Source: Rhodobacterales bacterium (GTDB taxonomy: Bacteria; Pseudomonadota; Alphaproteobacteria; Rhodobacterales; CAZPXZ01). Taken from it: a stretch of 64,000 bases of DNA. Shown in pieces: positions 5,595 to 55,838 of this stretch. The notes under the pieces were generated by a model. It was not told where the DNA came from. It worked only from the letters and a program-made list of their open reading frames with translations, and did no database searches. Where the stretch lies: contig OZ244777.1 in the NCBI GenBank assembly GCA_965219495.1, positions 1,398,419 to 1,462,418 on the forward strand, written 5' to 3'. Numbering within the stretch: position 1 is the stretch's first letter; every line of letters begins with the position of its first letter. The position numbers and the translations under genes were made by a program.

Positions 5595-5707
5595 CTGAAT
5601 CGACTTTGAGGCCAGCGCCAATGTTGTGCTGGAGCAGTTGAGTTCTCCAGTGCAGACAGGGTTTGCCTTGCTTCGACGCGCCGCTGGCGCGAAACGCGCA
5701 CTCAACT

Positions 5708-9207: not shown

Positions 9208-9247
9208 TCGACGAACAGCTTGCGGCTATTCCCCCATCGGGGAGATA

Positions 9248-9610: not shown

Positions 9611-9625
9611 CGTCGATTCCCCGCT

Positions 9626-9823
9626 TCAACCGTACGGAATGAATTTGCGGACGATCTTCTGGTCGGGAGCGGACAGGACTTCCATTCCCCGCGCCTTGCG
9701 AATGAACTTCGGCGTTCGCTTGATCATGCCGTGGCGCTTCCCAGTTTGTTGCGCCTTGATGCGCCCGTTTGCGGTTACCTTGAATCGCTTCTTGGCCCCC
9801 GACTTTGTCTTCAGCTTGGGCAT
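9626..9823 (-). CDS. rpmI: 50S ribosomal protein L35
   Basis: Internal ATG of ORF 9626-9946 gives a 65-aa protein, [37 protein letters not shown]. The start codon complement cat is at 9821-9823. Confidence 0.95.
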
Positions 9824-10058
9824 TTCGTCCTCAAGAATGTGTTTGGACAACAGAAACAGCCGCCTCGGCAGCCCATTGCGAGCCGGGCGGCTCTGCTGAT
9901 CCCCGAAATACGGGAAATCGGGACGTTTGACAAGGGGGGCCGCCACGCGCCGCCTCCCTCCACAGTCCCAATTCTACTGTCTTGGGCAATCATACCTATC
10001 CGCAAGGGTTTCTCGGCGCCATTCCACGCCACTTGTGGCGAAGGCGCCTTCGGGCGAT

Positions 10059-11389
10059 TCAATCCGAAATCAGTTCGGTGATCTCACGCCGGAACGGAAC
10101 CGTGTCCCCGGTTACGGGAGCGCCGTCCAATTCTTCTGCGAATCGCCTGCCGGCAAAAACCGCATGAGCGATTGTCGCGGGCGCCAGCGCGTCACCGATT
10201 GCCTCGACGGTTTCTATACCCGCGTCTTCCCAAGAGTCCCTCACTGCTTTCAATTCGGCGACGATTTGATCCGAAGGAATTCTCGAAGTCACGAGGACGG
10301 TCGTGTCGGCTTCGATTGACTCGGCTCGGCCAGTGTGAACGCAAGAGACCGAGGCAACGCCGGGAGCAATTCGGTCGAGTTGGCGAAACGCCTCGATTCG
10401 GATGCCCTTTTCCAACATTCGCGCCTGTATGAAGTGCTGTTCCATCGTGTTGCGGGTCCAGGTCGAAGCCTCGGAAGCCGGGGTAATGTATGTCGTTTCG
10501 AACCCGCCGTCCGCGAGGCGCTCAGCCAGGACCCCGCCCATATAGAAGTGATCGTCGTCCCAGACCGCCACTTTCTTCCCGCTGGGCAACAGGCCGTCCA
10601 TCAGATCATCGGGAGTAAGAACCTCAGACCCCTCCGCAATGGGCACCGGTGTCTTCCAGCAGTAGCCGATTCCGTCGATGCGCCATCGGGCGCCGGTCGC
10701 TATCGCAACTCGGGGAAAGCCGAACTCCAGAATCGCCGCGGCGTCAAGCTCCGATTCCATGTACATCATGACGTTGGGAAGCTTGTGCAGTTGCCCGACC
10801 CGGTAGTCCCGGACCCGAATCCAGGCGGCGAGCCCCGGCAGCCGGCTCTCCCGGGTCACGCGACCGCCCGCCTCCGTGCTTCGTTCCGCCACGGTCACTT
10901 CGTAACCGCGCTTGCCCATCGCCTGAGCAGCCTCCAGGCCCGCCGGACCCGCTCCGACAATCAGCACGGCCTTGCCGCTCTCCTTGGGCCGGATGTATTC
11001 CGGATGCCATCCGCGCCGCCATTCCTCTCCCATGGAGGGGTTCTGGGTGCAGCGGATCGGCGACATCGTAAAGTCCCCCGACACACAGATATTGCACCCG
11101 ATGCACTCGCGTATGTCTTCCAGCCGCCCCTCCTCCACCTTCCTGGGCAGAAACGGGTCGGCGATCGACGGGCGTGCGCAACCGATCATGTCGACTATGC
11201 CTTTGCGGATGACGGAGACCATGCGATCGGGAGAGGTATAGCGGCCCACGCCAACCACAGGCTTGGTGGTAAGCTGCTTCACGCCCGCGATGAAGGGTTC
11301 CTGCCGCCCCTCCTCTCCAAAGCGGGATGTCTGGCTGTCGTTCTCCCACGGAGCAAGGCAAACGTCCCAAAGATCCGGGATTTCGGCAA
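10059..11389 (-). pseudogene. trimethylamine/dimethylamine dehydrogenase-like flavoprotein, C-terminal part (interrupted by IS)
   Basis: Translation EIPDLWDVCLAPWENDSQTSRF...KPVVGVGRYTSPDRM...GCARPSIADPFLPRKVEEGR...CIGCNICVS...LIVGAGPAGLEAA matches the 4Fe-4S and ADP-binding half of TMADH-type enzymes. The reading frame continues upstream of the listed ORF as far as the IS junction. Confidence 0.8.
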
Positions 11390-13107
11390 GGGTGCAGGTC
11401 TCCTATGGCAAAATCGCACTGAGGAATTTCAGGCACTTACGTCAGGAAGCAAGGGCGATGCGGGGGATTTGCTGTGAAACTCTGCGGCCGGAGGCAATTT
11501 TTCCCGGGAAACCCGCGATATGGAGCGGATGAGAGTGCTCTCAACCACAAGCCGTGGTATCTTGAATGCAAAAAGCAAAGAACGCACAAGAAAGGAGCAC
11601 TCTCATGTCTATTCTACCTTTTCCCGACAATCCGTCCAGCTTTCCTGCTTCCGTCCAGCGGTCGGATTCGGTGCCGGGCGCGCTTCCGGCGAAGCTCATC
11701 GAAGCCTTTCATTGGCGCCTTGGCGCGGTCTTGCAATCCGGCATGGCGGCGACGGATTTCGAGCGGTTTGAGCGGGACGTGGTGTCGGCGTTGCATGGGT
11801 TTGGCCGGGAGATATTGCAAGACAGCATCGAACGTCTTGACGATGGCGCCGCTTCGCTGACGCGGGACGGGCGGGTCTATACGCGGGTGGAGGCGACGTC
11901 GAAGACGATCATGACGTCGGTGGGGCAGGTGAGTTTTTGGCGGAGCCGCTACCGGCGTGCGGGAGAGGCATCGGTGGCGCCGGTGGACGAGAAACTCGGC
12001 TTGGCGGACGCCTTTTTCACGCCGCTTGGGGCCTGCCAGTCTCTGTACCTGCTGAGCGGCAACACGGCGCGGGATTGCGTTGCGCAGCAGGAAATGTTCG
12101 GCATCGACGGGGCCTCGGTGAGCAGCCTGCAGCGGCTGGGCAGGGCAGCTGCGGAACATTGGGAAGAGGTGGCGGAAGAGGCGATGGAGGAGATCCGGTT
12201 GGAAGAGGGGGTTCCGGCGGCGGCGGCGAGCGCCTGCGTCTCCCTCGACGGCGTCATGGTTCCGATGCGGCCGGGCGAGGGGGAAGACCGGAAAACCGTA
12301 TACCGGGAAGCATCTTGCGGCAGCCTTACCTACTACGACGAGGCGGGCAAGCGGCTGCACAGCGTGTATTTCGGGCGCATGGCGGAGCCGGGGAAAGCGA
12401 CCCTCAAGGAGGAGCTGGCGGCCGAAGTCGCCGGCCTTGTCGGACGCCGCCCGGATCTGCGGATCGTCGGCATCGCCGATGCCGCGCCGGACAACTGGAG
12501 CTTCCTCGGCACACTGGTCGCGGAGGATTGCCAGCTGGTCGACTACTGGCATGCCTGCCAGCACCTGCAATGCGTGGCGGATGCCGCCTTCGGCGGCGGC
12601 GCGGCGGCCGGCGCGAAGTGGTTCGAGAAGTACAAGGCCGTCCTGCGCGACGACGAGGATGGCATCGAGAAGGTGATCGACGCCATCCGCTACCGCCTGC
12701 GCCGCGCCGGCGCCGCGAAGGCCGAGGTGAAGCGCGAGCTGCGCTTCTTCCGCAAGCACCGCCGGCGCATGCGCTACGCGGCATTCCATGCCAAGCGCCT
12801 GCCCATCGGCTCGGGGGTAATTGAGGCGACCTGCAAATCCCTGGTGAGCGCCAGAATGAAGAAGGCCGGCCAACGCTGGGGGCACAGCGGGGGACAAGCC
12901 ATCCTGACGTTCCGCAGCTTGGTCAAGTCCGAGCGGTTCGACCGGGCATGGAGAGCAATTGCGGCGAGATTGAAGGGCGCCGCCAACGACAACGGCGCCG
13001 CAATCGAGACACCGAGGAAGGCTGCATGAATGAATATTGAACGAAAAGATGCTCAATGAAGGGACATATTAAAACTTGAGTCTGTTTTCCATATGAGAAT
13101 CACACCC
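11390..13107 (+). mobile_element. insertion sequence (ISKra4/ISAzba1-like), 1718 bp, with 9-bp target-site duplication
   Basis: The direct repeat TTTCGGCAA occurs at 11381-11389 and again at 13108-13116. The terminal inverted repeats are GGGTGCAGGTCTCCTATGGCAAAAT and the reverse complement GGGTGTGATTCTCATATGGAAAACA (17 of 25 positions match). Removing the IS and one repeat restores ...MIELIAEIPDLWDV... in frame. Confidence 0.85.
11605..13029 (+). CDS. DDE transposase, ISKra4-family-like
   Basis: AAGGAG lies 7 nt upstream of the ATG at 11605. Motifs are SLDGVMVPMR, IADAAPDNW, DYWHACQHL and IGSGVIEATCKSLVSARMKKAGQRW. The family call comes from remembered motif spacing. Confidence 0.7.
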   Translation: MSILPFPDNPSSFPASVQRSDSVPGALPAKLIEAFHWRLGAVLQSGMAATDFERFERDVVSALHGFGREILQDSIERLDDGAASLTRDGRVYTRVEATSKTIMTSVGQVSFWRSRYRRAGEASVAPVDEKLGLADAFFTPLGACQSLYLLSGNTARDCVAQQEMFGIDGASVSSLQRLGRAAAEHWEEVAEEAMEEIRLEEGVPAAAASACVSLDGVMVPMRPGEGEDRKTVYREASCGSLTYYDEAGKRLHSVYFGRMAEPGKATLKEELAAEVAGLVGRRPDLRIVGIADAAPDNWSFLGTLVAEDCQLVDYWHACQHLQCVADAAFGGGAAAGAKWFEKYKAVLRDDEDGIEKVIDAIRYRLRRAGAAKAEVKRELRFFRKHRRRMRYAAFHAKRLPIGSGVIEATCKSLVSARMKKAGQRWGHSGGQAILTFRSLVKSERFDRAWRAIAARLKGAANDNGAAIETPRKAA

Positions 13108-13864
13108 TTTCGGCAATCAACTCGATCATGTCCTCGGCCTCGTGCTTTTCCAGCCCGCCGGGCCCCGCGAGTTCATCTGTGGAAATTCGGCAAGGAACCG
13201 CGCAGCGGTCACCCACGGCCTCCTTGGTTTCAACCAGGACTTCCTTCAGGAGACGAACACGGTTTTCCAGCGAGCCGCCGTATTCGTCGCGGCGCTGATT
13301 GAGTTGCCTGGACATGAATTGGGAGAGAATTGTCAATGCGTGTCCCGCGTAGACGTAAACGAGGTCGTATCCCGCCCTTTCGGCCCGAAGCGCGGCCGCC
13401 TTGTGCCAGCGGCGAACATTGCGGATATCATCCCTGTCCATGCTGCGCGCATGCACCGGATCGTAGCTGAACGATGCAATCGGCAATCCGGTCGGGGCCA
13501 TCGGCACTTCGCGCGAGTAGAAATTGGAGCCATGCAGCCCGTTGTAGCAAAGCTCCAATCCCGCCAGCGCACCGTGCTCGTGAATCTTGTCCGCCGTCCG
13601 GGCGAGAGCCGGGATGTCCCGATCATCCCAAAGCCGCAATTCGATGAAGGGCGTGATCTCGGAAGTGTGATGGAATTCGACCTGCTCCGTGCAAACGACC
13701 GCCCATCCACCCTCGGCCTTGACGCCGCGCATATGTGCGAGCGCCGTAGGATCGCGATATCCCATGCCGTTGCAGTGGGGAACCTGGTAAAAGCGGTTCT
13801 TCGCGGTGACGGGTCCGATTCTGACGGGTTCGAACAGGATGTCGAAGCGTGAGTCTCTGGGCAT
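13108..13864 (-). pseudogene. trimethylamine/dimethylamine dehydrogenase-like flavoprotein, N-terminal (OYE/TIM-barrel) part
   Basis: MPRDSRFDILFEPVRIGPVTAKNRFYQVPHCNGMG...KAEGGWAVVCTE...GYDLVYVYAGH...RRDEYGGSLENR is closely parallel to the TMADH N-terminus. It is cut off by the IS at 13107. Confidence 0.8.
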
Positions 13865-14016
13865 GATATCGAGCGCATTCCTGGTTGCGGAAGCCGCATA
13901 CGGCTTCCGGCTGGCCGGTGGCGGGCTTGCGCCAAGGTCGCCGCCTTGCGCGGCGAGCCGGGCGCGAGCCTTGCCGGGCGGCGGACTCCCGGAGAAGCCC
14001 GCCGCTCCATGAGAAG

Positions 14017-14754
14017 CTAGTTCGCTACTTCTTCAGGCGCGTCCAGATCGTGTCGTACACTTCCCTGGGTTGCCTGGTCGCAAACCGCGATGAATGTGCC
14101 CGCAGGCGCATCGGCCGGCGGAACGGACTCGGGCTGGGAACTGAGTTCCGGGTCGAGGAATGGGCCGACGCCCTTCACTCCTGCGGCATACCGGGCGTAA
14201 TTCGTTACCGCCCCGATATTTTCCGGTTCCAGCAAGAAGTCCATGAACTTGATGGCGCTTGCCCGATTCGGAGCATCCTTTAACAGCACCACGTTATCCA
14301 TCCAGACGATGTAACCTTCCCTGGGATATGCGTACTCGACATTTGCGCCTTCTTCACGCGCCTTCGCGGAAAAGCCGTTGTAGATCATCCCGGCCGCCGC
14401 ATCGCCGGAAACAAGGACGTCCTTGGCGATATCGGAGCCGAAGAATGCCCAGTGTGCCTTTGCCGACTGCAGGAGCGCGTCAAGCGCCTTCAACTGCTCC
14501 CTGTCATTGGTGCGCTGGGGAATTCCGAGATGCAGCGCCGCAAGGAGCATGACCTCGCCCTGACTGTCGAGCACGTTGATCTTGCCCTTTAGTTCGTCCG
14601 GCGGATCAAGAATGACACCGGTGGTGTGGATGTCGCCCTGGTAGACATCACGATTCGCCGAGAAGCTGGTGGAACCCCATTGGTAGGGGACGGAATGCTT
14701 GCGTCCCGTGTCAAAGGGCACGTCGACCCACTGCGGCTCGATATTCTGACTTCC
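14017..14754 (-). pseudogene. spermidine/putrescine ABC substrate-binding protein (PotD/PotF-like), C-terminal part
   Basis: The frame gives ...NIEPQWVDVPFDTGRKHSVPYQWGSTSF...YPREGYIVWMDNVVLLKDAPN. It is separated from its N-terminal part by the 877-bp element. Confidence 0.8.
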
Positions 14755-15631
14755 TGACCTCATGCGATGATCCGGGCGTCCTGATGGAGGCCATTTCTTT
14801 GTCGCAGAAGGATTTTCCCGTGGCAAAGGCCATGACATTCCATGCGGATCGCCCTATATGCCATGATGCTGTCGCGGGGGCCGACTTGACCATTTCACCC
14901 TTGCCGATGTGTCCAGCAGACGCCATTGCGATCCGTTCCACCATGTCCATGATCAGCCGGGATGGAACCACGACGTATTCTCTCAATCTGCAACCCATCT
15001 GCAGCCATGCCGACGAAGACAGCAACGCGCGCAACCGCATGATCGGCCAGTTCGCCGTCACCGGGCTGGCGTCGCACAAGGAATATCGTGGCCGCATTCG
15101 GCGTCAGCCGCGCGACGGTCACGCGCGCCGCGCGAACACGTCGCGAAAAAGGGGACGACGGTTTGCACAAGCCGCCCATGCCGCGCAGCCGGACGGCGAT
15201 TGACGCGGCGTGCGCGGGAGAGGCCGGCCGCCTTCGCACCCAGGGGTTGAGAATTCGCCGGACCGCGAAGCTTCTCGGCTTGTCGCCTATCGAGCCGAAG
15301 CCGCCATGATACCCTGCATCGCCAAGGCTTCAGGGAAAGAAAAGCAACCCACGCGCCGACCTCCGCACCCTGTTCTCCACCGAAGCGACCATCCTGTCCG
15401 ACTGCCCGCGGAAAACCCTTGCCATCCGCATCCCGTATCTCGACAACAAGGCGCACACCCGTCATCTCCGACCTCTCCTCGAAACCCTCAACGTAACCAA
15501 GACCGTGTTCCCCGGAACTGACCTTACAATGGCGTGCGAACTCGCATTCGACTTCGATTGTGACCATCCATTCGACCTCGCCGTCCCTGCGAAATGGATC
15601 ATCTCAAATGGTATGGGGTCAGGAAGTCAGA
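14755..15631 (+). mobile_element. 877-bp non-autonomous TIR element (internally deleted IS derivative)
   Basis: Perfect 15-bp terminal inverted repeats: TCTGACTTCCTGACC at 14755-14769 and GGTCAGGAAGTCAGA at 15617-15631. They are flanked by the direct repeat TAT (14752-14754 and 15632-15634). The interior has only broken frames: HTH-like FGVSRATVTRAARTRREKGDDGL and RLRTQGLRIRRTAKLLGLS, plus a C-terminal-tail-like segment. Confidence 0.8.
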
Positions 15632-15953
15632 TATTGGCGATATTGGCGAGTTCGCCCTCTGCGATCATGTTCAGCAGGCCCTCGTCGGCCATGATCTTCG
15701 TCATGTAGTCGCCGGGAACCGCCACGTCGTACGACCCGATCTTGCCCGCCTCGAGGGAAGCCAGCAGCGCTTCATTGGAATCGTAGGTGTCCATCGTTAC
15801 CACGATTCCCGTCTCCGCGGCGAACTTGTCGAGAAGTTCCTGCGGGATGTATTCGAACCAGTGATAGATCGAAATCTTGTCGGTGGCGTTCGCCGCGCTT
15901 GCGGCGACGTTGAAGAGCAACGCCGCCAGTCCGAGTTTGAAACAGGATTTCAT
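15632..15953 (-). pseudogene. PotD/PotF-like substrate-binding protein, N-terminal part with signal peptide
   Basis: MKSCFKLGLAALLFNVAASAANATDKISIYHWFEYIPQELLDKFAAETGI.... Removing the element and one TAT rejoins ...ELANIANIEPQWVD... in frame. Confidence 0.8.
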
Positions 15954-15997
15954 TGGATTCTCCTTTTCCGGTTTCTGGATTCGGTTGGGAACAAGCC

Positions 15998-16810
15998 TCA
16001 GCTTTCCGTCTTTGTCCCATATTTCCCAATGAAATAGGACAAGGTGACGAGAAACACCGAGACGATGAGCATCAGGGAGCTGAGTGCCATGATGTTGGGC
16101 TTGATTCCCTGTTTGACGGAGCCGTAGATCGCCGTAGGCAGCGTTTCCACGCCCGCGCCCTTGATGAAATTGGTGATGATGAAATCGTCGAGAGAAATGA
16201 TGAACGCCAGCAGGAATCCCGCGAGAATTCCCGGCGCCATCAGTGGAAACAGGACCCGCCGAAACGCTTCCAGGCGGTTGGCGTACAAGTCCTGCGCTGC
16301 CTCTTCGTAACTTCCGTCGATCCCCTGCAAGCGGGCGGCGATGGGCAGGTAGGCGAATGGAATGCAGAAGACGATGTGGGCGACGACAATGGACGGATAT
16401 CCAAGCTCGAACCCGATGGCGCTAAAGAAGATCAGGGTCGCGACCGCGGTGACGATTTCGGGAACCATGATCGGCATGCGGATGAGACCGAGGCTCAGGT
16501 ACTTGCCGCGAAACGAACCGCCTCGCACCATTGCGATCGCGGCAGCCGTGGCAATGGTTGTGCTGACGGTTGCGGCGGAGACAGCGATCGTCAGCGAATT
16601 CCCCGCGGCGGTCTTGAACTTTGCGGCTTCCAGCCCAACAAAGATGTCCGCGTACCAGCGCAAGCTAAACCCACCCCAGCGGGAGATCGAGATGGAATCA
16701 TTGAAACTGTACGCCATCACGACGAGCAACGGCGCATAAAGCACAAGCAGGCACACGATCGTTACCGGCAGGAAGCCCGGATAGGCCCTGACATCGTGCC
16801 GGCGATCCAT
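15998..16810 (-). CDS. polyamine ABC transporter permease (PotC-like)
   Basis: Membrane protein with an ABC permease EAA-type loop ([28 protein letters not shown]). The chosen ATG at 16810 lies 1 nt after the stop of the upstream permease. Confidence 0.85.
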
Positions 16811-32363: not shown

Positions 32364-32542
32364 CCGGGGTCGGGCGCGCGACAGCGCGAAGTCCGAAACC
32401 GGATGGTTCAGCGACTCGAACATCTTGCCGGTGGCGCGGGCGTAGCCCCGCGTGGTTTCGGCATTGCGATGTCCGAGCGCGTCCTGGATGACATTGATAT
32501 CGCCGCCGCGTTCATGCATATGAGTCGCCGCCGAATGGCGCC
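32364..32542 (-). pseudogene. tyrosine recombinase, C-terminal half (box II) of the split IS91-associated integrase
   Basis: (R)HSAATHMHERGGDINVIQDALGHRNAETTRGYARATGKM, which includes the catalytic Tyr region. It runs in frame into the transposase ORF. Its 5' end is at palindrome HP1. Confidence 0.8.
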
Positions 32543-32567
32543 AATGTCGTGTGCGACATTGGCGCCA
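32536..32567. repeat. perfect 14-4-14 palindrome HP1
   Basis: TGGCGCCAATGTCG TGTG CGACATTGGCGCCA. GGCGCC is present on both sides of the 18-bp core. Confidence 0.95.
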
Positions 32568-32568
32568 C

Positions 32569-32942
32569 AATGTCTTGTACTTTTTACGTCGGGTAGCTGG
32601 CTTGAGGCCCTGCAAAGTCTCACGCTGAGTGCAGCATCACTCGACATAAGTCCATGCACGCAGTTTGCCCTTGGTATCCCAGACGGCTTGTTCCGAGAGT
32701 GATTGCAGAGTTTCTGCGAAGGTCCAAACCATTCTCGCGACAACCCTCACTTCTAATGCATCAAACACTTGCGTTCCTGTTGCGGTCTTGCTGGCGATAC
32801 GGACCATGAGTCCAGAAGCATCTTGATTCTCCATATCTCGAGTTGAATCTTGCAACGGAAGCCACAAGACCATGTCGAGTGATTTGACCCTTTTCGCCAA
32901 GCGGCCCAAGGACTTGAACGCATCGCTCGACATAAAATAATA
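32569..32942 (-). mobile_element. small (~383 bp) AT-richer TIR element inserted in the integrase gene (remaining 9 bp at 35376-35384)
   Basis: After the nested IS66-like element is removed, the ends read ACAATGTCTTGTACTTTTTACGTCGG and, as reverse complement, ATAATGTCTTGTATTATTTTATGTCGAG. About 22 of 27 positions match with one gap. The flanks carry GCGCC copies. Confidence 0.65.
32637..32933 (-). CDS. hypothetical 98-aa protein filling the small TIR element
   Basis: This is the only long ORF in the element (MSSDAFKSLGRLAKRVKSLDMVLWLPLQ...). I recognise no family. Its ATG lies within the subterminal repeat. Confidence 0.3.
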   Translation of the reverse strand: MSSDAFKSLGRLAKRVKSLDMVLWLPLQDSTRDMENQDASGLMVRIASKTATGTQVFDALEVRVVARMVWTFAETLQSLSEQAVWDTKGKLRAWTYVE

Positions 32943-32978
32943 GTAACCGTTCGGTTTTAGCGTGATGGGGCTGTGTAT

Positions 32979-33866
32979 TCAGCGGTTCAGGATTCGTTTC
33001 CGGTCTTTTCGCAGGGGGCGAAGCCAGATTTCCTTTTTGGGCAAGGCGTATTGGTTTTGGGTGTCGTAGCGTCCGCGGCCTTGGGTAGTTCCGACATGGA
33101 TCCATCCGGCGGCGCGGTAGGCGGTTCCGACGAATCGCGGGGTCTCGACGAAGGTTTCGACGAGGACGGGGTTGATGTTGTACTGGCGCTTCCAATCCTC
33201 GGGCAGGCGCTGTCGGGCGCTGGCGAGGATGTGGGAGGCGAGGTTGGGGATGCGGATCCAGGGCAGGATGAGGAACCTTGCATTGTCGCACAGGAGCGGG
33301 AGGTTTTTCTCGCGGGTTTGCGGGGACCATCCGATGAAGCGGTCGCGCGGGGCGGTTTTCCATGCCGCGGTGGAGAAGCCGAGCATGGCGAGCGGCGCTC
33401 CGTCGCGGTCCTGGACGGCGTAGCGCATCTGGGCGTCGACCAGGGTCTTGTAGCCGAGATAGTGATAGCGTTCGATGAACTCGTTCCACAGGCGGCTGGC
33501 GCGGGGGCCGGCGCCGGTGACCGGGACGAAGCGCAGCGGACGGACCGCTTCGAGGGTGGCGGGGGGCGGGAACAGCGGCGGGTCGGTGGCCGCGGTGAAG
33601 GGGACCGGCTTGCGCCTGGCGCGCTTGCGGCTTTTCGCCGGCGGCAGGACGATCACCCCGTCGCGATGCATTTTCAGCATGGTGACCTTGGCCATCATGT
33701 GCTTGAGGCCGCCATCCGGCTTGCGCCAGCCGATGCGGCGGCAGAACTCCCGGGCCAGCCGGCTGCGGTTCAAGGCCGGCGGCCCGGCGATCATGGCGCG
33801 CAGCAGTGCCATCTCCTGGGCGCTGAAATCGCGCCCGTAGTAGCGGCATTCGACCTCACCGGTCAT
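32979..33866 (-). CDS. DUF4338 domain protein (DruA-like)
   Basis: 295 aa with NEFIERYHYLGYKTLVDAQMRY, RDRFIGW, CDNARFLILPWIRIPNLASHIL, VETFVETPRFVGTAYRAAGWIHVGTTQGRGRYD. These are motifs I associate with DUF4338. Confidence 0.7.
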   Translation of the reverse strand: MTGEVECRYYGRDFSAQEMALLRAMIAGPPALNRSRLAREFCRRIGWRKPDGGLKHMMAKVTMLKMHRDGVIVLPPAKSRKRARRKPVPFTAATDPPLFPPPATLEAVRPLRFVPVTGAGPRASRLWNEFIERYHYLGYKTLVDAQMRYAVQDRDGAPLAMLGFSTAAWKTAPRDRFIGWSPQTREKNLPLLCDNARFLILPWIRIPNLASHILASARQRLPEDWKRQYNINPVLVETFVETPRFVGTAYRAAGWIHVGTTQGRGRYDTQNQYALPKKEIWLRPLRKDRKRILNR

Positions 33867-33930
33867 GGCGGTTCTTGCAGCCTGCGCCTTCGCTCTTCGC
33901 TCATCGTCCAGGGAAGCCAGATCGCCAGGT

Positions 33931-34019
33931 GTGCGTGCTCACAAAGATTGATTCCGGATCGGGTGGATCCGATCAGATTCCGTGCATGAATGTCGATCGG
34001 TTCCCCCGGGGAGCTTGCA
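33931..34019 (+). repeat. 89-bp repeat R2 (partner of R1)
   Basis: See R1. It lies in the divergent intergenic region between the DUF4338 gene and the Cys-rich ORF. Confidence 0.85.
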
Positions 34020-34073
34020 CAAGCATCCCCGGGGGGTTTGTCTCTCTTGTTATCCAGCAGGAGAGACCAATCA

Positions 34074-34316
34074 ATGTTGCACGGAATCCTCGTCGGCGCC
34101 AGTGAGTGGGCGCATTTCACCCGGATTGACGCGTCGATCGCGGAGGCGTTTCGCGAGGTGGGCTGCGGCCGCTGCGGGGGGCGGCTTCACGTTGCGGATT
34201 ATGCGCGCGAGCCCCGTGGCCTCGGCTTCCGCCGGGGTGAGGGCTTCACGCGGTTCAGCTTCTGCTGCGGTTCGGAGGGCTGCCGGCGGCGGTCGACGCC
34301 GCCCTCGGTGCGCTAA
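34074..34316 (+). CDS. Cys-rich hypothetical protein (probably 3'-truncated)
   Basis: MLHGILVGASEWAHFTRIDASIAEAFREVGCGRCGGRLHVADYAREPRGLG...FSFCCGSEGCRRRSTPPSVR, with GGAGAG upstream. A zinc-ribbon-like CxxC...CC...C pattern. It runs into the antisense strand of the IS66 transposase remnant. Confidence 0.45.
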   Translation: MLHGILVGASEWAHFTRIDASIAEAFREVGCGRCGGRLHVADYAREPRGLGFRRGEGFTRFSFCCGSEGCRRRSTPPSVR

Positions 34317-34434
34317 TTCGGTTCGCGGGTTTACGCCTCCGGATGCTTTCCGGTGGTTTCGGCGCTTTCCGGCGGTTGCAGCGCCGCGGCGGGTTGCTGC
34401 GGGCGCTCCGGTGGCTGTTGCCGTGGCGCTGCGC

Positions 34435-35261
34435 GAGCGATCGACATGAAACCACACCGCGTCGAGCGAAATCCCCACCCACAGCCAGGCGCGGCGCGAG
34501 GCGCCCGCCTCGCCGAGCGCCTGGATCCGCCAGCTGGTCTCGCCGCCCTGGCGCAACCGTTCTGCCGCGCCAGGATCGCTTCCGAAAGCGGCGCGAACAG
34601 CGGCAGGAAACGGAGGATGCTGCTCGACAGGGTCCCCGCTGACAGCCGCAGTCCTTGCTCGCTCATCCATGCCGCGATCCGGTTGACCGGCCGGAAACAG
34701 GCATAGCACTCGTACAGGAAGCGCGCCCAGAAGCTGACGCCGTATGGCGTGTTCGCGAACAGCCGCGCTACCGGCGGCGCCGACACCTCTCGCGGCGACG
34801 ACGCGCAGTCGCAGGCCCGCCGCCGAAGCACGCGCCTGTGCGCCCGGACCTCCACTTCGACGATCTCCAAAACGTGCGAACCGTTCGCCACATAGGATGC
34901 GCCGCAAGTGCCGCAGACCCGGTCCGTCTGCGGTGGATCGCGCGCTTCCGTCTTCTTCGCCAGCTCCGGCCGCTGCGTGCGGCCATGCCCGGCGGCGCCG
35001 AACCGCCGCCGACACCGAAGCCAGCTTCTCGCGGCAACGCTCGAAACCCGAGCGCCAGGAATGCGCCGCTTGCCGCGCGCGACCCGCCTCCCAAAACCGC
35101 GCCTCAGCTTCCGCCTGCAGCGCATCCGACCGTCCCTGTTCCCGTGCGTACAACCGCCGCCAGTCCGGCCCCGCCGGCAACGGCGCACACGCCAAAATCG
35201 GGTCCACCCCGCCAACCGGCGGGGCCGGCATCGTCCCATGCACATCGTCGCGAATCGCCAT
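34435..35261 (-). pseudogene. IS66-family transposase (TnpC-like), frameshifted and 3'-truncated
   Basis: Three frames are needed: an N-terminal coiled region, then VCGTCGASY...VEVRAHRRVLRRRACDC...RIAAWMSEQGLRLSAGTL, then GETSWRIQALGEAGASRRAWLWVGISLDAVWFHVDRSRSA. Homology ends near 34440. Confidence 0.7.
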
Positions 35262-35384
35262 GCATCACACATAGCGCATCCTGAAACGGGTTACCAGTGC
35301 ATCGGCCAATTCGGGATAATGGAAATTAACGGCCGCACGAAAACATCACGTGACAACCGAACGGTTACAATAATACAAGACATT

Positions 35385-36095
35385 ATGGCGCAAACAATGA
35401 AAGGTATGGCGCCGATGGATGCCGGCCCGGTCACGGGCCTGGAGGAAGGCGAAGTTCAGGGTCGCCTTCTTGACGGGGGTGTCCGGGGACTTGCCATAGA
35501 ACAGCCAGCTTGCCGGTCGCGGATAGAGGCGGCTCCAATAGGAGCGCAGATATTCGATCGCCCGCTCCGGCAGCGGCGCCATGCGCTCGTGTCCGCCCTT
35601 GCCGGCGCGGATGTGCAGCAGCCGGCGGTCGGCGTGGATGTCGGAGACCTGCAACGAGAGGGTCTCCGAAATCCGCAGGCCGGCAGCATAGGCGGTCAGC
35701 ATCGCCGCCCGGCAGCGCAGGTCGGGGGTCGCCAGCAGCAAGCGCTCGACCTCTTCCTCTTCGAGATGCCGGGGCAGCTTGCGGGGGATCTTGCGGTTGC
35801 GCAGCCCGGCGACCAGGTCGGGACGGCCGAGCGTATCGCGGAAGAAAAACCGCAACGCGGAGAGGCAGACGTTGGTGGAGCCGGGGTGCAGTCCGCGGTC
35901 GATCAGTTCCAGGACCCAGGCCCGGATTTGCTCCGTATCCAGTTGCTCAGGCGACTGGCCGTAATGGCGGGCAAGACGCCAGATCTCGCGCAGGTAGGAC
36001 TGCTGCGTGTTGTCGGCGAGATTGGCGATGCGCATCTGATCGATCAACCGCTGGCGAAGAATGGAACCCTTGTTCTTGGTGCTTGAAGTCATCAT
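35385..36095 (-). pseudogene. tyrosine recombinase, N-terminal part (ends at HCLRH) of the split IS91-associated integrase
   Basis: MMTSSTKNKGSILRQRLIDQMRIANLADNTQQSYLREI...AYAAGLRISETLSLQVSDIHADRRLLHIRAGKGGHERMAPL...HTFHCLRH, then unrelated codons. The C-terminal half is 2.8 kb downstream at 32364-32542. Confidence 0.8.
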
Positions 36096-50187: not shown

Positions 50188-51957
50188 TCATCCGCCGAAT
50201 TCCAGTTTCAGGGACCGGTTTGCCAGCCACGGCAGCGCGGTCACCTGGTCCGCGAAGCCGGCATTGATCATCATCGGGTTGTGGGCCCGGTGCCCGAAGC
50301 GGACGCGGACGGTGTGATCAGAGATGGTGACGTTGGCAGTGGCGTCGATGAAGTTCCGGAACAGGGTCCTGGCCCGCGCGATCGCCTGCCCGTTGCCGAT
50401 CCGGTTTGCCAGCAGCCGGTAGAGCCCGCTGGCCATGAGGGTGAGCTGGAGGTCGGTGTTGATGCGCATGGGCACGGCGGCGGAGAGCGCGTCCATGTGG
50501 AAGAAGTCAATGGTCTCGGCGATCTGGTTTTCGACGACCATTCTGCGCGCATAGCGGTCGACGAGGTCGGCGGGCCTGGCCCGCATCTGGTTGGTCATGA
50601 GCAGCACCGGGTCGTCGTGCCCGAGGTCGGCGACGGCGATCTGGCGGATCTCGCCGGGATACTGCGGCAGGCGGATGCGGTCGTCGATGATCCGCGGCGT
50701 GCGGTAGCGGCGGCCGATGTTGGCCAGCCGGATGCGGCGCCAGTCGGCCTCGGGACGTGCACGAAGTTCCGCCATCATTTTCTTCGAACGCCGGCGCAGG
50801 GTGAGGAAGGCAATGCCCTGCCGGTCGATCCCGGCTAGGTTCACCTGGGTCGTGAGGCGGCTGTCGAAGACCAGTTCGGCGGGCAGGATGCCGGTCTCGT
50901 CCCGGTAATCCTCGACAAAGCGCAGGATGGCGTCGTTCTGGCGGTCCTTGCGGATGGTCGCATCGGCAGAGCAGAACACCCGGGCCTCGGCATCGCGGGC
51001 CAGGAAAGCGAGGACGCCGTTCTGGCGGCGCGAGCGCTTGGAGACATAATGCTTCTCGATCAGCGCCTGGTCGCCATGGTAGGGAATGGTGTGGAAGTCG
51101 AGATCGAAGGAGGCGCCGGAGCCGAGACCGTGGTCGCGGACGGCGCGGTTCCACGCGCGCATCAGCCCGGGGAGCAGGCGGGGATCGACCCGGGTGCTGT
51201 ATTCGGTGAGCGTCGAGCGCTTGGGCATGGCGTTGAGGCCGGCAAACAGCGCCAGGCCGGGATCGAACACCTCGGCCATGGCCTGCGAGGGCCGGCCGAT
51301 GCCCCAGAGCTTGAGAGCCAGCAGGGCACGCCAGGCACAGTCCGCGGGGATCATGGCGCTGCCCGGCATGGAGGTCTCCGCAAGCAGGCGATCGAGATCG
51401 AGGGCGGCGAGCATCGGGGCGAAGACAAACAGCCCGCCGAAGCGGGTGCGGAACGTGCCCGCCTGAAGGTGGAAGACGCGGCGGTCGGCGACCGGCGCGG
51501 CATCCGGGCCGATGATATCGGCCAGCACGGCAGCAGAGCGCCGCGGCAACCGCGCCAGGCCGGCCTCGCGGATCACCTTGGCCACGGTCGACAGGCTGGC
51601 AGGACAGTCCTCGGCTGCAAGGACGGCGGCGATCTGGTGGATCGACATCTGCCGCTCCCGCCGCAACTCCAGGATACGCCGGTTCCGGTGCCTGCGTGAG
51701 ACCGTCGCCCCCGGAGCGGGCTCTTCGTCCTTCGGCTTCTCTGGCGGCTGGAAGAAGGCCCACCCGGGATCTGCATTGAACGCGGAGCAGAGGTTGCGGA
51801 AGGAGCCGATGCTGTAGCCGAAGGCCTCCGCGGCAGCCTTGCAGTCCATGCCGTCAACGTAGTGGGCGCGCAGCGCCTCGTAGCGTCTTTGGGCCGGGTT
51901 CCGTGGCCTGAGGAATGTGTCCCGGAGTGTCAGAATCTCCAACCCTGCATATAACAC
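50188..51957 (-). CDS. DDE transposase (IS4-superfamily-like, family uncertain), apparently intact
   Basis: 589 aa with a GTG start and two N-terminal HTH-like regions. Motifs are DLDFHTIPYHGD and YARRMVVENQIAE (YREK-like). The C-terminal tail FRNFIDATANVTISDHTVRVRFGHRAHNP resembles the tail remnant in the 877-bp element. The IS ends are not confidently located (roughly 50.15-52.0 kb). Confidence 0.75.
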   Translation of the reverse strand: MLYAGLEILTLRDTFLRPRNPAQRRYEALRAHYVDGMDCKAAAEAFGYSIGSFRNLCSAFNADPGWAFFQPPEKPKDEEPAPGATVSRRHRNRRILELRRERQMSIHQIAAVLAAEDCPASLSTVAKVIREAGLARLPRRSAAVLADIIGPDAAPVADRRVFHLQAGTFRTRFGGLFVFAPMLAALDLDRLLAETSMPGSAMIPADCAWRALLALKLWGIGRPSQAMAEVFDPGLALFAGLNAMPKRSTLTEYSTRVDPRLLPGLMRAWNRAVRDHGLGSGASFDLDFHTIPYHGDQALIEKHYVSKRSRRQNGVLAFLARDAEARVFCSADATIRKDRQNDAILRFVEDYRDETGILPAELVFDSRLTTQVNLAGIDRQGIAFLTLRRRSKKMMAELRARPEADWRRIRLANIGRRYRTPRIIDDRIRLPQYPGEIRQIAVADLGHDDPVLLMTNQMRARPADLVDRYARRMVVENQIAETIDFFHMDALSAAVPMRINTDLQLTLMASGLYRLLANRIGNGQAIARARTLFRNFIDATANVTISDHTVRVRFGHRAHNPMMINAGFADQVTALPWLANRSLKLEFGG

Positions 51958-51999
51958 ACATTGTCACGCTATCATTCAGCACAATCCCCGTCAACCGCT

Positions 52000-52581
52000 T
52001 CATCCGGTGGCAATGCCAATGAGCTTGCGCTCCGGTAGCTGTTTCCAGCCCGCGTTGCGCCAGCGCTTGTGACGATGCGACCAGATACGTCGCAAGATCC
52101 AGCCGTCAAGCTGGTGGAAGAGTTGGCGAACATGGGCATTGCAGTAGTATTGGCCCCAGCCGCGAATGACCGGATTGATCTCGTCGATCAACTCCCGCGT
52201 ACTGACGGGAGACTTGCGCCGCGTGCGCTTGCGGATCTGGTCCTTGAAGTGCCGGACGGATTTCGCACGCGGAACCGCGTAGCGCGTCCCCCTGCGAGCC
52301 CCGCTCCTGATCTTCGAGGGATGCAGCCTGAACGGCCGCCGGCCCTGCTTGATCTTGAAGCCGAGAAATTCGAACCCGTACTTCACATGGACAATACGGG
52401 TCTTCCCGGCATGCAGGGTCACGCCCAGCTTCGACAGTATCCGCCTGGCTTCCTCCAGTGCCGCCCGGGCTTCCCCGTCTGTGCGGCATGTGATCAGCCA
52501 GTCGTCGGCATATCGAGTAAGTCGATAAGCGCGCCGGCGCATTTCCCGATCAGACGGGGTCAGCAAGATATTACTGAGCAA
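52000..52581 (-). pseudogene. group II intron reverse transcriptase/maturase, C-terminal fragment
   Basis: LLSNILLTPSDREM...RYADDWLITC (the YADD motif), followed by the maturase X region (INPVIRGWGQYY). RT domains 0-4 are missing. Confidence 0.8.
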
Positions 52582-52585
52582 CGGA

Positions 52586-52668
52586 TATGGGAACCTTATG
52601 ATTATGGGAACCTAAGCCGCTGCGGGCGTTGATTTTCAAGGGATTGGACAAGGATCAGGTTCCCATAA
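52586..52668. repeat. TATGGGAACCT x2 (direct) plus inverted AGGTTCCCATA
   Basis: Copies at 52586-52596 and 52603-52613, with the inverted copy at 52658-52668. They lie exactly between the 5' break of the RT fragment and the 3' end of an integrase fragment. Confidence 0.8.
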
Positions 52669-52679
52669 AATTGGCGGGT

Positions 52680-52907
52680 TCAGGTGCCTGCGAGCATCGC
52701 GAGCAACTCGTCCTGCACACCCTTGAACATGCCCTTCCGGAGGCTGGGAGGGCGCCATTTGTCGAGCGTATCCAGCTTGTCGGTCGGATCCGCCTGCAGA
52801 TACATCTCGGTGGTCTGAAGGCTTGAGTGCCCAAGCCAGAGTGAGACCTTCCTGACGTCACCGGTCGCCTCGAGAGTGTGGGTCGCGCAAGCGTGACGCC
52901 TATGTCG
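52680..52907 (-). pseudogene. tyrosine recombinase C-terminal fragment (box II only)
   Basis: RHACATHTLEATGDVRKVSLWLGHSSLQTTEMYLQADPTDKL...LAGT-stop. It begins at the 50-bp palindrome. Confidence 0.75.
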
Positions 52908-52934
52908 TGCACGACATAGGCGTCACGCTTGCGC
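52885..52934. repeat. perfect 50-bp palindrome HP2
   Basis: GCGCAAGCGTGACGCCTATGTCGTG | CACGACATAGGCGTCACGCTTGCGC. The inner part, TATGTCG-TGCA-CGACATA, resembles HP1. Confidence 0.95.
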
Positions 52935-53157
52935 AATGCACATCCTGGAGGCCACAAAAGATATCCGGAAAGTATCCCTCTGGCTGGGCCATGCCAGCAT
53001 GCAGAGCACCGCAGCCTACCTCCGTGTCGATCCCGTGGAAAAGCTCGAGGTGTTGAACGCAATTGTCCCCCCGGCAATCAAAAAGGGATCGTTCGATGGG
53101 GCGCAGGACAAACTGCTTCGGATGCTAGGCGACGCCCCGACTCCACAAATATGTTAA
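52912..53157 (+). pseudogene. second, divergent tyrosine recombinase C-terminal fragment, head-to-head with the first
   Basis: RHACAMHILEATKDIRKVSLWLGHASMQSTAAYLRVDPVEKL...PQIC-stop. Confidence 0.75.
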
Positions 53158-53238
53158 GTGATTCCGGCCCCGAGGCCAGCGCCACAAGGGCGCTCGCCGC
53201 CTCACTCAACATATGTCTTTACTCAACATATTGAATAG

Positions 53239-53275
53239 GCTCTTATCGGTCATGCTGCGCATGACCGATAAGAGC
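53239..53275. repeat. 17-bp-stem hairpin downstream of IS91-type transposase copy 2
   Basis: GCTCTTATCGGTCATGC TGC GCATGACCGATAAGAGC, a perfect stem. Candidate ori-end structure of the rolling-circle element (inference). Confidence 0.6.
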
Positions 53276-53649
53276 GTTGAGCTGAGCCGCGCGCTCCAGA
53301 TGGCGCTGTTCAATGGGGAATGGAAAGGCTGGGCCGGGATTGATTGTGCGGAAGCGATGCGTTTAGTGGCTCGCCACGGGTTCGCCGTGACGTCGAGAGC
53401 CGGCTCCGGGTAGATTTCTTCCTCCAGGCAGGGGCATTCGAGGTCGCTTTTCAGAATCACGAGCGAGATCGACACAGCAGCGACGCGAGCCGGCGGTGCG
53501 TCGCGGCGATATCGGATCGGGATCGGTCGGCACTGGCGCATCGTCATGGTGGTCGGGGCCTTTTCGCTCCTGTCGCGGTCTGGAACCGTGGCCCGGGAAT
53601 GGGGATCTGTCGCAGTGGACCCTGCCCGCACTGCTGGCACACAGTGATG

Positions 53650-54753
53650 TCAATTCCCGTCAGGCGTAGCATCATCTCCTGCGTCGTTTCCGGCTCGGAC
53701 GGTTCCGGATCGGGCTAACCGAGCAGCGCTCGGCATTGGGCAAGCTTGCGAGCCCGGAAGCGATTGGCGAGCAAACCGTAGTGGCGTAGCCGGGTGAATC
53801 CGTGCGGGAGAAAGCGGCGGATGAACTCGTCGGGGTTGAGGCGCATGACCTTGGCTTTGTTGCCATGCGCGTAATCGCGCCACCGGAAGCGGACGTGCTG
53901 GCCGTCGAAGTCGAGCAGACGGTGGTTGGCGATGGCGGTTTTGTGGGTGTAGCGCCCGAGATAGCCCAGAACCTGTTCCGCGCCGGCGAAGGGGGCCTTG
54001 GTGTAGACCACCCAGTCGTGCGACCGCAGCGCAGTTTTCAGCGCTTCGAACACGCGGTCGTCGCCGACGCGATTGGGGCCCGGCATGCCCAGCTCGCGCT
54101 TGCGATGGGCGGTGGTGAGGATGTCGAGATACTTTCCCCGAAAGACCTTGGAGAGGGCCGCCGTGGGAAACAGGAATCCCTTCCGGGCCGGGGTGAGCCA
54201 GCGTTCGTGGCCCGGGCTCAAGCCGCCGTCGGTGACGATGCAGTGGACATGGATGTGCTGCCCCAAGTTCTGCCCCCAAGGTGTGCAGCACCATGGTGAT
54301 GCCGAGCTCACCGCCGAGCCAGCGGGGATTGCGCCCGAACTCGAGCAAGGTCTGGGAAGCGGCCTTGAAGAGCAGCTTGTAGAGGAGTTCGGGACGCGCC
54401 TGGGCGAGGGGGTTGAGCTCGTGTGGCAGCGTGAACACGACATGCCAGTAGCCGATGTCGAGCAGATCGGCACACTGACGCTCGACCCATCGGGTCTGCG
54501 AGAGAGTCTGACACTTGGGGCAGTGCCGGTTCCGGCGCGACGCATATTGAAAGGTCACCGCGCCGCAGTGGTCGCAATGAGCCTTGAATCCGCCGAGAGC
54601 GGCGGTACGACACCGCACCAAGTCGTCCACGACCCGCTGTTGCCGGGTCGAGAGCCGATGCGACTCCGCGTAGGCATCGGCACGTTCGCGGAGAATGTCC
54701 GCCACTTCCAGTGCCGGCCGAGCGGCCGGCGCTGCGTGGCTGGCATGAGCCAC
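53650..54753 (-). pseudogene. IS91-family (HUH) transposase, copy 2, frameshifted
   Basis: GTG start. It has the zinc motif CDHCGAVTFQYASRRNRHCPKCQ. The frame is lost at about 54279 by one extra base (ACCTTGGGGGC where ACCTGGGGGC would give HTWGQNLGQHIHVHCIV). The second frame continues to YLGRYTHKTAI...RHYGLLANR. Confidence 0.8.
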
Positions 54754-54756
54754 CGG

Positions 54757-55618
54757 TCAGGACGACGCGGCTCGTGGGAACTCCAACAGATCCAGTGGCG
54801 ACGGCGTGGCGCTTGTCTTGTTCTGTGCAAGATGCAGGTAGCGCATCGTCGAACGGATCGAGCCGTGCCCGAGCCGGCGCTGAATGACGGGGAGTTCGAC
54901 CCCGGCCTCGAGGAGCCCGGTGGCGTAGCAGTGCCTCAACGTGTGGATCCCGCCGGCTTTGCGGATCCCGGCCTTCCGCTTGGCACACTTGTAGATGTGT
55001 GCGGCCCCCGCGCGGGTCATCGGCCGGCCAAGAAGCTGGCTGGGGAACAGCCAGGGTCGGGGGCGCTCGCGGTGCCAGTACTTGCGCAGCTGCTTGAGCA
55101 GCCGGGGCGAGAGCGGAACGTAACGGTCCTTGTTGCCCCTGCCCTAGTCGACGCGCAGACACATCCGCGCGGAGTCGATGTCCGTGAGCTGCAATCGGCC
55201 GAGCTCGCTTGCCCGAAGTCCCGCGGCGTAGGCCGTCATCAGCAAGGCGCGATGCTTGGAGTTGGTGGTGACCGCGAACAGCCGCACCAGTTCGTCGTGG
55301 TTGAGGATCTCGGGCAGCGTGGAAGGCGTCTTGGCGCCGGGTACCGGGTACATAGAAGTGCGGGTCGGGCAGACCGAGCGTGACGCGGTACAGGAAGCGA
55401 ATGCCGTGGCGTACGCAGTTGCAGCTCTTCCAGCTCAATCCGCGTTCTTCGTGCAGGTAGATGAGGTAATCCTGGACCTCCTGCGCCGAGATCCTGCCGG
55501 GACTGCGGCGGTAGTGTCGCGCGAGCCCGGTGACGGAGTGGAGATAGGAACGCATGGCGTTCTCGGCAAAGGCGCGGACCGTCATGTCGTTTACCATCCG
55601 TTTACGCAAAGGTGTCAT
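54757..55618 (-). pseudogene. tyrosine recombinase partner of IS91 copy 2, inactivated
   Basis: N-terminal SAM-like domain (MTPLRKRMVNDMTVRAFAENAMRSYLHSV...). A 7-bp tandem duplication CGGGTAC at 55338-55351 shifts the frame. In-frame TAG at 55144-55146 (LRVD*GRGNKDRY). The C-terminus is intact (HTLRHCYATGLLEAGVELPVIQRRLGHGSIRSTMRYLH). Confidence 0.8.
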
Positions 55619-55838
55619 GAGTCGTCTCCCTTGAAGTGTGATCGATCACGAAGACGCACCAACCATTGCGCCCGCCGGTGCGTCGGTGAACGACTATCGC
55701 GAAACGACGGAGAGACGGGAACGGTCTACGATATCCGCGACCGTCAAACAGTCGCGCTGAAACGACTCACCGGAACAAGGAAAATCACTCTGAGCGCGCG
55801 GCGGGCACCCTCCCGCCGCGGAACGCGGCTCAGTTCAG

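Follow-up and report, generated by a model that had tools for sequence, protein, structure and literature searches.

A solo core of a recombinase-in-trio element as the probable origin of a palindrome between two ritC fragments in a Rhodobacterales genome

In a Rhodobacterales genome, the 3' ends of two different tyrosine recombinase genes are joined head to head by a perfect 50-bp palindrome with two arms of 25 bp, centred at 52909/52910 of the 64,000-nucleotide stretch analyzed here (GenBank assembly GCA_965219495.1, contig OZ244777.1; this whole stretch is hereafter the window). We propose, with good confidence, that this palindrome is a "solo core", left behind as a by-product when a recombinase-in-trio (RIT) element, of the type carried by plasmid pHG1 of Cupriavidus necator, underwent site-specific recombination at the 7-bp overlap G-CGN-CAC. 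The centre of the palindrome corresponds to the terminal 20 bp of such a RIT family, and on both sides of it the broken genes begin at the very codon at which this family inserts into recombinase genes.

Two ritC fragments around a 20-bp core

The preliminary description of this DNA had reported two divergent integrase C-termini fused through a perfect 50-bp palindrome, and the arm length, the centre and the C-terminal sequences that it gave were all reproduced. Read outward from the centre, the minus strand translates as RHACATHTLEATGDVRKVSLWLGH... and the plus strand as RHACAMHILEATKDIRKVSLWLGH... Past 25 bp, the two arms match each other at only 10-19 positions per 25-position block (about 55-75% identity), and the similarity is gone after about 240 bp. 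The window holds only two other perfect palindromes with arms of at least 9 bp, both with 10-bp arms (centres 7477 and 27120). Folded as a single strand, the 50-mer forms a hairpin of -35.4 kcal/mol, compared with -13.8 +/- 2.3 kcal/mol for shuffled sequences (z = -9.6). An exact copy of the 50-mer also occurs in each of two ENA metagenome contigs that were assembled independently, from different samples (L003, from a source contig of 354 kb at 11x, and L004, from a source contig of 57 kb at 4x). Over 11-20 kb, the identity of these contigs to the window is 99.93%, and they differ from it by 11 and 5 substitutions, respectively. Since the junction is thus exact in three assemblies that differ by substitutions, the assembly artefact that the preliminary description had named, together with the absence of a reciprocal junction, as the outcome that would undo it is very unlikely.

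Both arms match positions 133-169 of the 172 positions of the Pfam Phage_integrase domain, and both align from residue 259 to the end of RitC, the third recombinase of the plasmid-borne RIT trios of Paracoccus, Agrobacterium, Novosphingobium and Sinorhizobium, with 53-68% identity and E values of 1e-21 to 1e-29. For arm B, identity is 56-59% with the Paracoccus and Agrobacterium proteins (tblastn) and 53-67% with the RitC proteins of the intact Novosphingobium and Sinorhizobium trios. In both arms the similarity to the third recombinase of intact trios runs through the C-terminal extension, which places them in the RitC subfamily; an extra C-terminal helix of RitC has been described (PMC8138268). 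At the position of the junction, intact RitC reads P-H-V-L-R-H (for example, ccg cat gtg ctg cgg cac). The homology of the arms to intact ritC extends no further than the Arg codon, and nothing in the intact genes corresponds to the central CCTATGTCGTG|CACGACATAGG (Table 1). Beyond codon 5, the arms share 8 of 24 codons at mutually conserved residues; they are best read as fragments of two old paralogues and not as a recent duplication, in keeping with the preliminary description, which had excluded a recent simple inverted duplication from the divergence of the arms beyond about 25 bp.

Table 1. Coordinates of the palindrome, the core and the flanking RIT remains in the window
Feature	Position	Strand	Description
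Perfect palindrome	52885..52934	.	O', core and O, plus 8 more symmetric bases per side
Solo RIT core	52900..52919	.	CTATGTC-GTGCAC-GACATAG, inverted 7-mers around a 6-bp spacer; non-integrase; matches the terminal 20 bp of the 3.44-kb RIT family
O'	52893..52899	-	GTGACGC (reverse complement of G-CGT-CAC), putative crossover/overlap; Arg-His codons of arm B
O	52920..52926	+	GCGTCAC, putative crossover/overlap; Arg-His codons of arm A
Arm B	52680..52898	-	3' fragment of ritC, 72 codons from box-II Arg to stop, RHACATHTLEATGDVRKVSLWLGHSSLQTTEMYLQADPTDKL...AGT* (tblastn, Pfam)
Arm A	52921..53157	+	3' fragment of a different ritC, 78 codons from box-II Arg to stop, RHACAMHILEATKDIRKVSLWLGHASMQSTAAYLRVDPVEKL...PQIC* (tblastn, Pfam)
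Right end of arm-B RIT	52582..52679	-	TTATGGGAACCT near the stop (52657-52668); inverted copies AGGTTCCCATA 17 nt apart (52603-52613, 52586-52596)
Right end of arm-A RIT	53150..53231	+	TATGTTAAGTG overlapping the stop (53150); inverted copies ACTCAACATAT 17 nt apart (53204, 53221)

Each ritC fragment is followed by the right end of its own RIT. The layout is the same for both arms, in that one motif of 11-12 nt at or near the stop is separated by about 40 nt from a pair of inverted copies spaced 17 nt apart, and the same layout is found in the RITs of loci L002 and L005. The motif itself is not the same in the two cases (TTATGGGAACC in arm B, TATGTT(A/G)AGTG in arm A), so that the two arms would be the right-hand 300 bp of two RITs with different specificity. 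We also considered that RIT terminal repeats might natively hold an inverted ritC 3' end, and this was ruled out, as a repeat of this kind is missing from the RITs of L001 and L002.

A RIT element consists of three adjacent genes on the same strand, ritA, ritB and ritC, with short overlaps; the window has two ritC 3' fragments only. Using RitA, RitB and RitC of the Paracoccus, Agrobacterium and pHG1-type RITs as tblastn queries, no RitC N-terminal part, no RitA or RitB of this kind and no close match other than the two fragments was found in the 64 kb. The feature in the window is a relic of RIT activity and not an element. When the 650-bp locus was compared with plasmids at the nucleotide level, only single-arm matches of about 75% identity were obtained, none spanning the palindrome, and an exact 33-mer of arm A had no match in the JGI metagenomes, where no intact or occupied version of the arm-A gene was found.

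The RIT family that owns the core and its target

A protein database search with the 81 amino acids of arm A returned two short proteins only, and their contigs led to the core. In L006, two other truncated recombinase genes have the 7-6-7 core 1 nt before their RH codons, and in L005, another contig of the same metagenome, a core is placed between a truncated recombinase fragment and a complete RIT, whose left end bears more copies of the 7-mer. In the window, CTATGTC-N6-GACATAG occurs a single time.

A scan of one genome per species with the pattern CTATNTC-N6-GACATAG-N-MGN-CAY gave at least 119 loci. All counts of cores, copies and insertions that follow are among the matches listed, which contain 126 cores (two known before the scan); these were classified, together with that of the window, by translation of their flanks. 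In 58 cases the element interior, with the conserved sequence GCGCCACTATCTACC..., lies on one side of the core, and on the other side is a recombinase fragment that begins at RH (49 cases) or whose RH start is unverified (9). Recombinase fragments lie on both sides in 12 cases verified by eye, the window included, and on one side only in 13; about 25 cores have no recognisable flank and are probable chance matches, and the leftover ones are mostly cut by contig ends or only automatically flagged. The taxa with a core include Alpha-, Beta-, Gamma- and Deltaproteobacteria, Acidobacteriota and Verrucomicrobiota, among others. The recombinase fragments point away from the core in all cases and belong to RitC-like, RitB-like, IS91-associated, integron-integrase-like and other families. 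Because the element side alone satisfies the RH part of the pattern and the outer flank is unconstrained, the association of cores with recombinase genes is real and not a product of the search. Fragment-core-fragment sites like that of the window are present in 11 other genomes (L020, L021, L049, L065, L068, L071, L098, L116, L117, L123 and L125). The core of L117 joins a RitB-like fragment to another recombinase type, and that of L021 an IS91-associated/Xer-like type to an RHTKAMHML type. The same pattern had 11 matches in viral contigs, none beside a recombinase fragment or RIT interior, which we read as chance matches, and this viral collection gave no sign of phage integrases being hit. 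Four one-sided solo cores (L009:2406, L011:785, L033:2568 and L105:7241) share their other flank, AAAAANNCTCT(G/T)(C/T)(A/T) directly before CTATGTC, which hints at another partner element or site.

Whole copies of the element that owns the core, 3.43-3.45 kb long, are present in 14 loci (one of them lacking only the far flank), and L122 has a shorter copy of 2.38 kb. The element is bounded at both ends by terminal inverted repeats (TIRs) of about 34 bp (consensus GCGCCACTATCTACCCTTCCTGACTATGTC), the inverted copy lying 3.40-3.42 kb from the core in 14 loci, and the 20-bp core lies outside the TIR at one end only. In L016, the three genes (532-1770, 1767-2711 and 2708 onward) overlap on the same strand, and this gene order is kept in 14 further complete copies. 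The three proteins pair one-to-one with those of known trios, with identities of 36% (RitA), 35-38% (RitB) and 39-41% (RitC). By its gene content and its repeats, we classify the element that owns the core as a RIT; its relatives are found on the Cupriavidus necator plasmid pHG1, in Aromatoleum EbN1 and on pNGR234a. The core lies at the ritA end in nine elements and at the ritC end in four, indicating that the RIT faces either way.

The complete insertions reveal where this family inserts. In 13 out of 13, the RIT lies exactly between the Leu and Arg codons of the motif H-x-L|R-H of a tyrosine recombinase gene, and its deletion in silico restores, each time, an open recombinase frame over ...P-H-x-(L/F)|R-H-x-x-A... 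All five restored open reading frames (ORFs) that were scanned have a complete Phage_integrase domain, and two restored ORFs are integron integrases (TIGR02249, 375 and 436 bits, for a cut-off of 265). Other RITs are also among the targets. The possibility that the fragments are part of the inserting element was ruled out, as removal of the element restores intact foreign genes. The layout of an insertion is N-part-O-TIR...RIT...TIR-O'-core-O-C-part, where O is a 7-bp region described below, and the core always adjoins the C-terminal fragment that begins with RH.

Plasmid pHG1 itself offers two cases. One RIT, with ISAe1 inside it, interrupts a neighbouring RIT at L|RH of its ritC, and removal of the inserted RIT gives back a RitC of 332 amino acids; the second copy has a RitB-like N-terminal part on one side and a RitC-like C-terminal part on the other, that is, mismatched partners. 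More generally, the cluster of recombinase genes at 2800-16400 of the pHG1 locus (L140) can be read as nested RITs. This recombinase-gene "maze" was noted without explanation in PMC2864759 and PMC3414803.

Cores may also serve as targets. In L109, a full RIT is bordered at each end by the same core in direct orientation, and beyond each core a C-terminal fragment points outward. In Paraburkholderia elongata (L023, 4076-4537), a 420-bp mini-element with two inverted ends and no genes is placed in the same manner, with an identical direct core and an outward-pointing recombinase C-terminal fragment at either end. Such a layout is expected if a circle integrates into a solo core by O x O recombination, and solo cores therefore seem to be usable as docking sites. 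The solo core of the window is probably still such a docking site for a RIT.

Outside this family, the RIT of the Agrobacterium plasmid pTi1D1609 (L002, 1911-5303) is built in the same way from other 7-mers (ATTATGTG-GAGCTC-CGCATAA, located outside a repeat of 41 bp), and it interrupts an IS66 tnpB gene between ...V-D-F and R-K-G-H... In a Sinorhizobium plasmid (L127), the right end of the RIT adjoins a near-identical flank (GAAGTCGACAGG vs GAAGTCCACAGG), which suggests that it occupies the same site as the RIT of L002. On these comparisons, different RIT families appear to have different fixed targets.

We then define O, the 7-bp region that borders the core. On the element, O is G-CGC-CAC and is present in inverted orientation on both sides of the core (GTGGCGC|core|GCGCCAC); at the same place, the target reads N-CGN-CA(C/T), which are the Arg and His codons. 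In the joined ends, O is found between inverted 7-mers (TAGATAG-TGGCGC-CTATGTC). This placement resembles the usual crossover site of tyrosine recombinases, where binding sites border an overlap of 6-8 bp that is identical in both partners and is cut at its edges for strand exchange; here, the sequence shared by the partners is N-CGN-CA(C). By scanning the JGI metagenomes for the predicted TIR-O'-core-O-TIR junction, one contig was found (L128, Ga0335082_10073382, 3457 bp), which holds the RIT in circularly permuted form, its two ends overlapping by 12 bp, giving a unit of 3445 bp, and whose junction reads TIR-GTGCCGG-CTATATC-GCTGGA-GAGATAG-TCGCCAC-TIR. This contig is a candidate excised circle or tandem repeat.

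The variable bases of O (positions 1 and 4) are mirrored across the core in 29 of the 63 RIT-linked cores (L005-L125), whereas 5000 shuffles gave 9.7 +/- 2.7. Rare Arg codons of the target are among the mirrored cases, and bases of the target Arg codon are thus copied to the element side; in complete insertions, the target bases are carried by the inner O or by the far O. We infer from these patterns that strand exchange takes place inside O, and that heteroduplex resolution, together with inversion of the element between its inverted copies of O, may shuffle the bases. A fold-back step would equally produce mirrored O bases.

Origin of the junction

On this basis, the junction of the window would have formed as follows. 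A RIT would insert at L|RH of the ritC of one resident RIT (that of arm A or of arm B; here written for A), giving N_A-O-TIR...RIT...TIR-O'-core-O-C_A. The intact inverted O' beside the core would then cross over with L|RH of a second ritC in the opposite orientation, and the 20-bp core would be detached from the element, leaving rc(C_B)-O'-core-O-C_A, where rc is the reverse complement, as is seen at 52680-53157. The partner product would be a core-less RIT between N_A and rc(N_B), or a deleted circle, in either case outside the window. The 25 bp of symmetry per arm would accordingly be made of three layers, with the inner 10 bp being half of the spacer (3 bp) and a 7-mer, the next 7 bp being O, whose variable bases mirror across the core in about 40% of the sites of the RIT family, and the last 8 bp being Ala-Cys-Ala codons common to the two paralogues. 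For these last 8 symmetric bases, a template-switch "correction" of a quasi-palindrome could also have added them. As unrelated recombinase families are joined in several of the sites, gene homology plays no part in the joining.

Several points weigh against this origin. No RIT with a CTATGTC core was found in the 64 kb; a copy is present in L005, another contig of the same metagenome. A core-less RIT between two N-terminal parts was not found among the loci examined, which were all selected for a core. The order of events, the catalysis by RitABC and the exact cut positions within O are all deduced from sequence alone. Finally, the first four codons are identical in both arms, compared with the 8 of 24 shared later (P ~0.012, or ~0.11 if the RH codons were set by the exchange), and some local homogenisation near the centre of the palindrome may have occurred.

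Among the alternatives, the best one remains unlikely in our view. It supposes that two facing RIT copies, one in each ritC, recombined inside the 6-bp spacers of their cores, with loss of the intervening DNA as a circle. The outcome could not be distinguished from the junction observed; the spacer of the window, GTGCAC, is palindromic, which permits exchange between two cores, and cores evidently serve as recombination partners in L109 and L023. However, a palindromic spacer is present in only 3 of 17 flagged fragment/fragment sites (12 of the 17 verified by eye), and antiparallel exchange at the others would be mismatched. Because most of the other fragment-core-fragment sites have non-palindromic spacers, we rank this route second. 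The mirrored variable bases also indicate O, and not the spacer, as the exchange region, and exchange at O accounts for all cases with one element.

The preliminary description had proposed another route, namely, that both integrase genes natively hold a symmetric site at the LRH codons and that inversion or recombination between the oppositely oriented genes fused the two C-termini, leaving an N-N junction elsewhere. Both genes are indeed broken at one and the same codon and meet in a symmetric junction, and the idea of a site-specific product located at L-R-H stands. The site itself is the core of a RIT and not integrase-gene sequence; intact RitC genes have no core upstream of RH, the central 20 bp are the end of a mobile element, and the same type of junction joins unrelated recombinase families. 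Moreover, exchange between two oppositely oriented integrase genes at homologous positions would yield N-C hybrids and not a C-C fusion. The reciprocal product predicted then, two N-terminal parts tail to tail, is replaced by the core-less RIT or lost circle described above, and the search for a reciprocal junction within the 64 kb found no RitC N-terminal part (tblastn) and no second CTATGTC core (core search). We consider this native-site route very improbable.

Even less can be said for a shufflon-like programmed switch that swaps recombinase C-termini by inversion. Head-to-head C-terminal segments across a tyrosine-recombinase site are the geometry between the segments of the R64 shufflon (Rci/sfx), and are also known from phase-variable hsdS systems. 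A shufflon has a constant N-terminal part and at least two inverted sites; the 64 kb contain one core, with no constant N-terminal segment and no other RitC-type gene. The paired fragments at other cores come from unrelated families, and each fragment of the window is followed by the end of a different RIT, which identifies the segments as wrecks of two mobile elements, not cassettes. An artefact of assembly or replication, such as a fold-back chimera or a hairpin-primed inverted duplication, is just as hard to credit, for although perfect palindromes are the classic signature of chimeric reads and the hairpin of the 50-mer is very stable, the arms part after 25 bp and lead into two different genes, whose downstream repeats also differ, the junction is exact in the three assemblies, and analogous junctions exist in the 11 other genomes.

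Known systems and neighbouring mobile DNA

RIT elements, including the copies on pHG1 and in Cupriavidus metallidurans CH34, were reportedly described by Van Houdt et al. in 2009, when they were named, and by Ricker et al. in 2013. Published accounts give them TIRs of about 34 bp (PMC10214605), note without explanation a palindromic stretch at one end (PMC3414803, PMC5737581) and report insertions in radC and IS66 genes; in this literature the target specificity is untested, movement has never been reproduced in the laboratory and the mechanism is unknown. The family that owns the core is like these elements in its three overlapping genes on the same strand, its TIRs of about 34 bp and its palindromic stretch at one end, whereas the window holds only a 20-bp footprint between two broken ritC genes. 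In the literature searched, which excluded Ricker et al. 2013, we found no description of RITs targeting the box-II codons of recombinase genes, nor of the O/core/O layout and solo cores.

The splitting of a tyrosine recombinase gene by integration recalls the SSV-type ("suicidal") integrases of archaeal viruses and plasmids, whose gene is split by integration at a crossover site within the coding sequence (PMC7253208). An SSV element splits its own integrase, while a RIT keeps its three genes intact and splits the recombinase of another element, at a site that is the box-II catalytic motif common to the enzyme superfamily. Indeed, in the 13 insertions it is the removal of a whole RIT, with its own genes intact, that restores the split gene. 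The choice of a conserved feature of other mobile elements as target is shared with Tn5053/Tn402 ("res hunters") and the IS1111-attC elements of integron cassettes, whose DDE transposases target recombination sites (res and attC, respectively). In contrast, the tyrosine recombinases of RITs would target the recombinase gene itself, including integron integrase genes. A conserved target in mobile elements can be found in most genomes, does the host no harm when it is hit and travels on transmissible DNA. Finally, Tn554 and the strand-biased circularizing elements (SE) carry about 6 flanking bp along and leave them at the next site (PMC10214605), which resembles the exchange of variable bases among copies of O; these elements differ from RITs in their genes (TnpABC; IntA/Tfp/IntB/Srap), have no 7-6-7 core with inverted O copies and do not target recombinase genes.

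We suggest that pHG1-type RITs may be "recombinase-gene hunters". Their attachment site would be the box-II H-x-L|R-H DNA of any tyrosine recombinase, be it of another RIT, an IS91-associated integrase or an integron integrase, their joined ends would form a four-site palindrome with two alternative 7-bp crossovers around the 20-bp core, and the second crossover would shed solo cores that become secondary docking sites. That this proposal as a whole is both correct and not already described is, in our judgment, an evenly balanced matter. If true, it defines the target and the recombination sites of RITs, which occur across many bacterial phyla, and describes an element whose means of spreading is to disable the integrases of other mobile DNA. 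Insertion into these integrases, including those of integrons, would lock the elements hit and let the RIT ride along with them. It also gives a testable description of one large RIT family, through the 3445-bp circular or tandem form, the joined-end site and the L|RH target. For annotation, many "truncated integrase" pseudogenes, recombinase "mazes" and odd palindromes may be readable as nested RIT insertions or their footprints. The palindrome of the window itself appears as a genuine, inert-looking scar amid a junkyard of mobile elements, and its practical message is modest.

Elsewhere in the window, a second such case supports the proposed target, for the gene of an IS91-associated integrase on the minus strand is split exactly at L|RH (N-terminal part 36233-35391, C-terminal part 32540-32400). 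The element inserted in it (32542-35390, 2849 bp) has the end layout of the RIT family with a variant core, CAATGTC-GCACAC-GACATTG (32542-32561), and repeats of sequence GCGCCA(T/C)AATGTCTTGTA, and the integrase frame is whole again once this element is removed. Rit genes are absent from the element, in which the coding content is limited to an IS66-like transposase fragment and a DruA-like (PF14236) ORF, and it had no match in the plasmid collection.

On the arm-B side, an ORF for a group II intron reverse transcriptase/maturase (52000-52581, minus strand), which is missing its N-terminal half, ends exactly at the RIT end (52581), and beside it lies a DDE transposase of 589 amino acids (50188-51957) with a weak IS1380-like match. 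An Rfam scan of 51500-54000 returned nothing, including no group II intron RNA domains. On the other side, an IS91-like unit (53232-55700) directly abuts the arm-A RIT end, with a hairpin of 17-bp stem at 53239-53275, a Y2 transposase gene (53650-54753) and an upstream integrase gene (54308-55618), both of which are broken by frameshifts. The first bases of this unit, TGAATAGGCTCTTAT, are the same bases that directly abut the RIT core of L089, in another genome.

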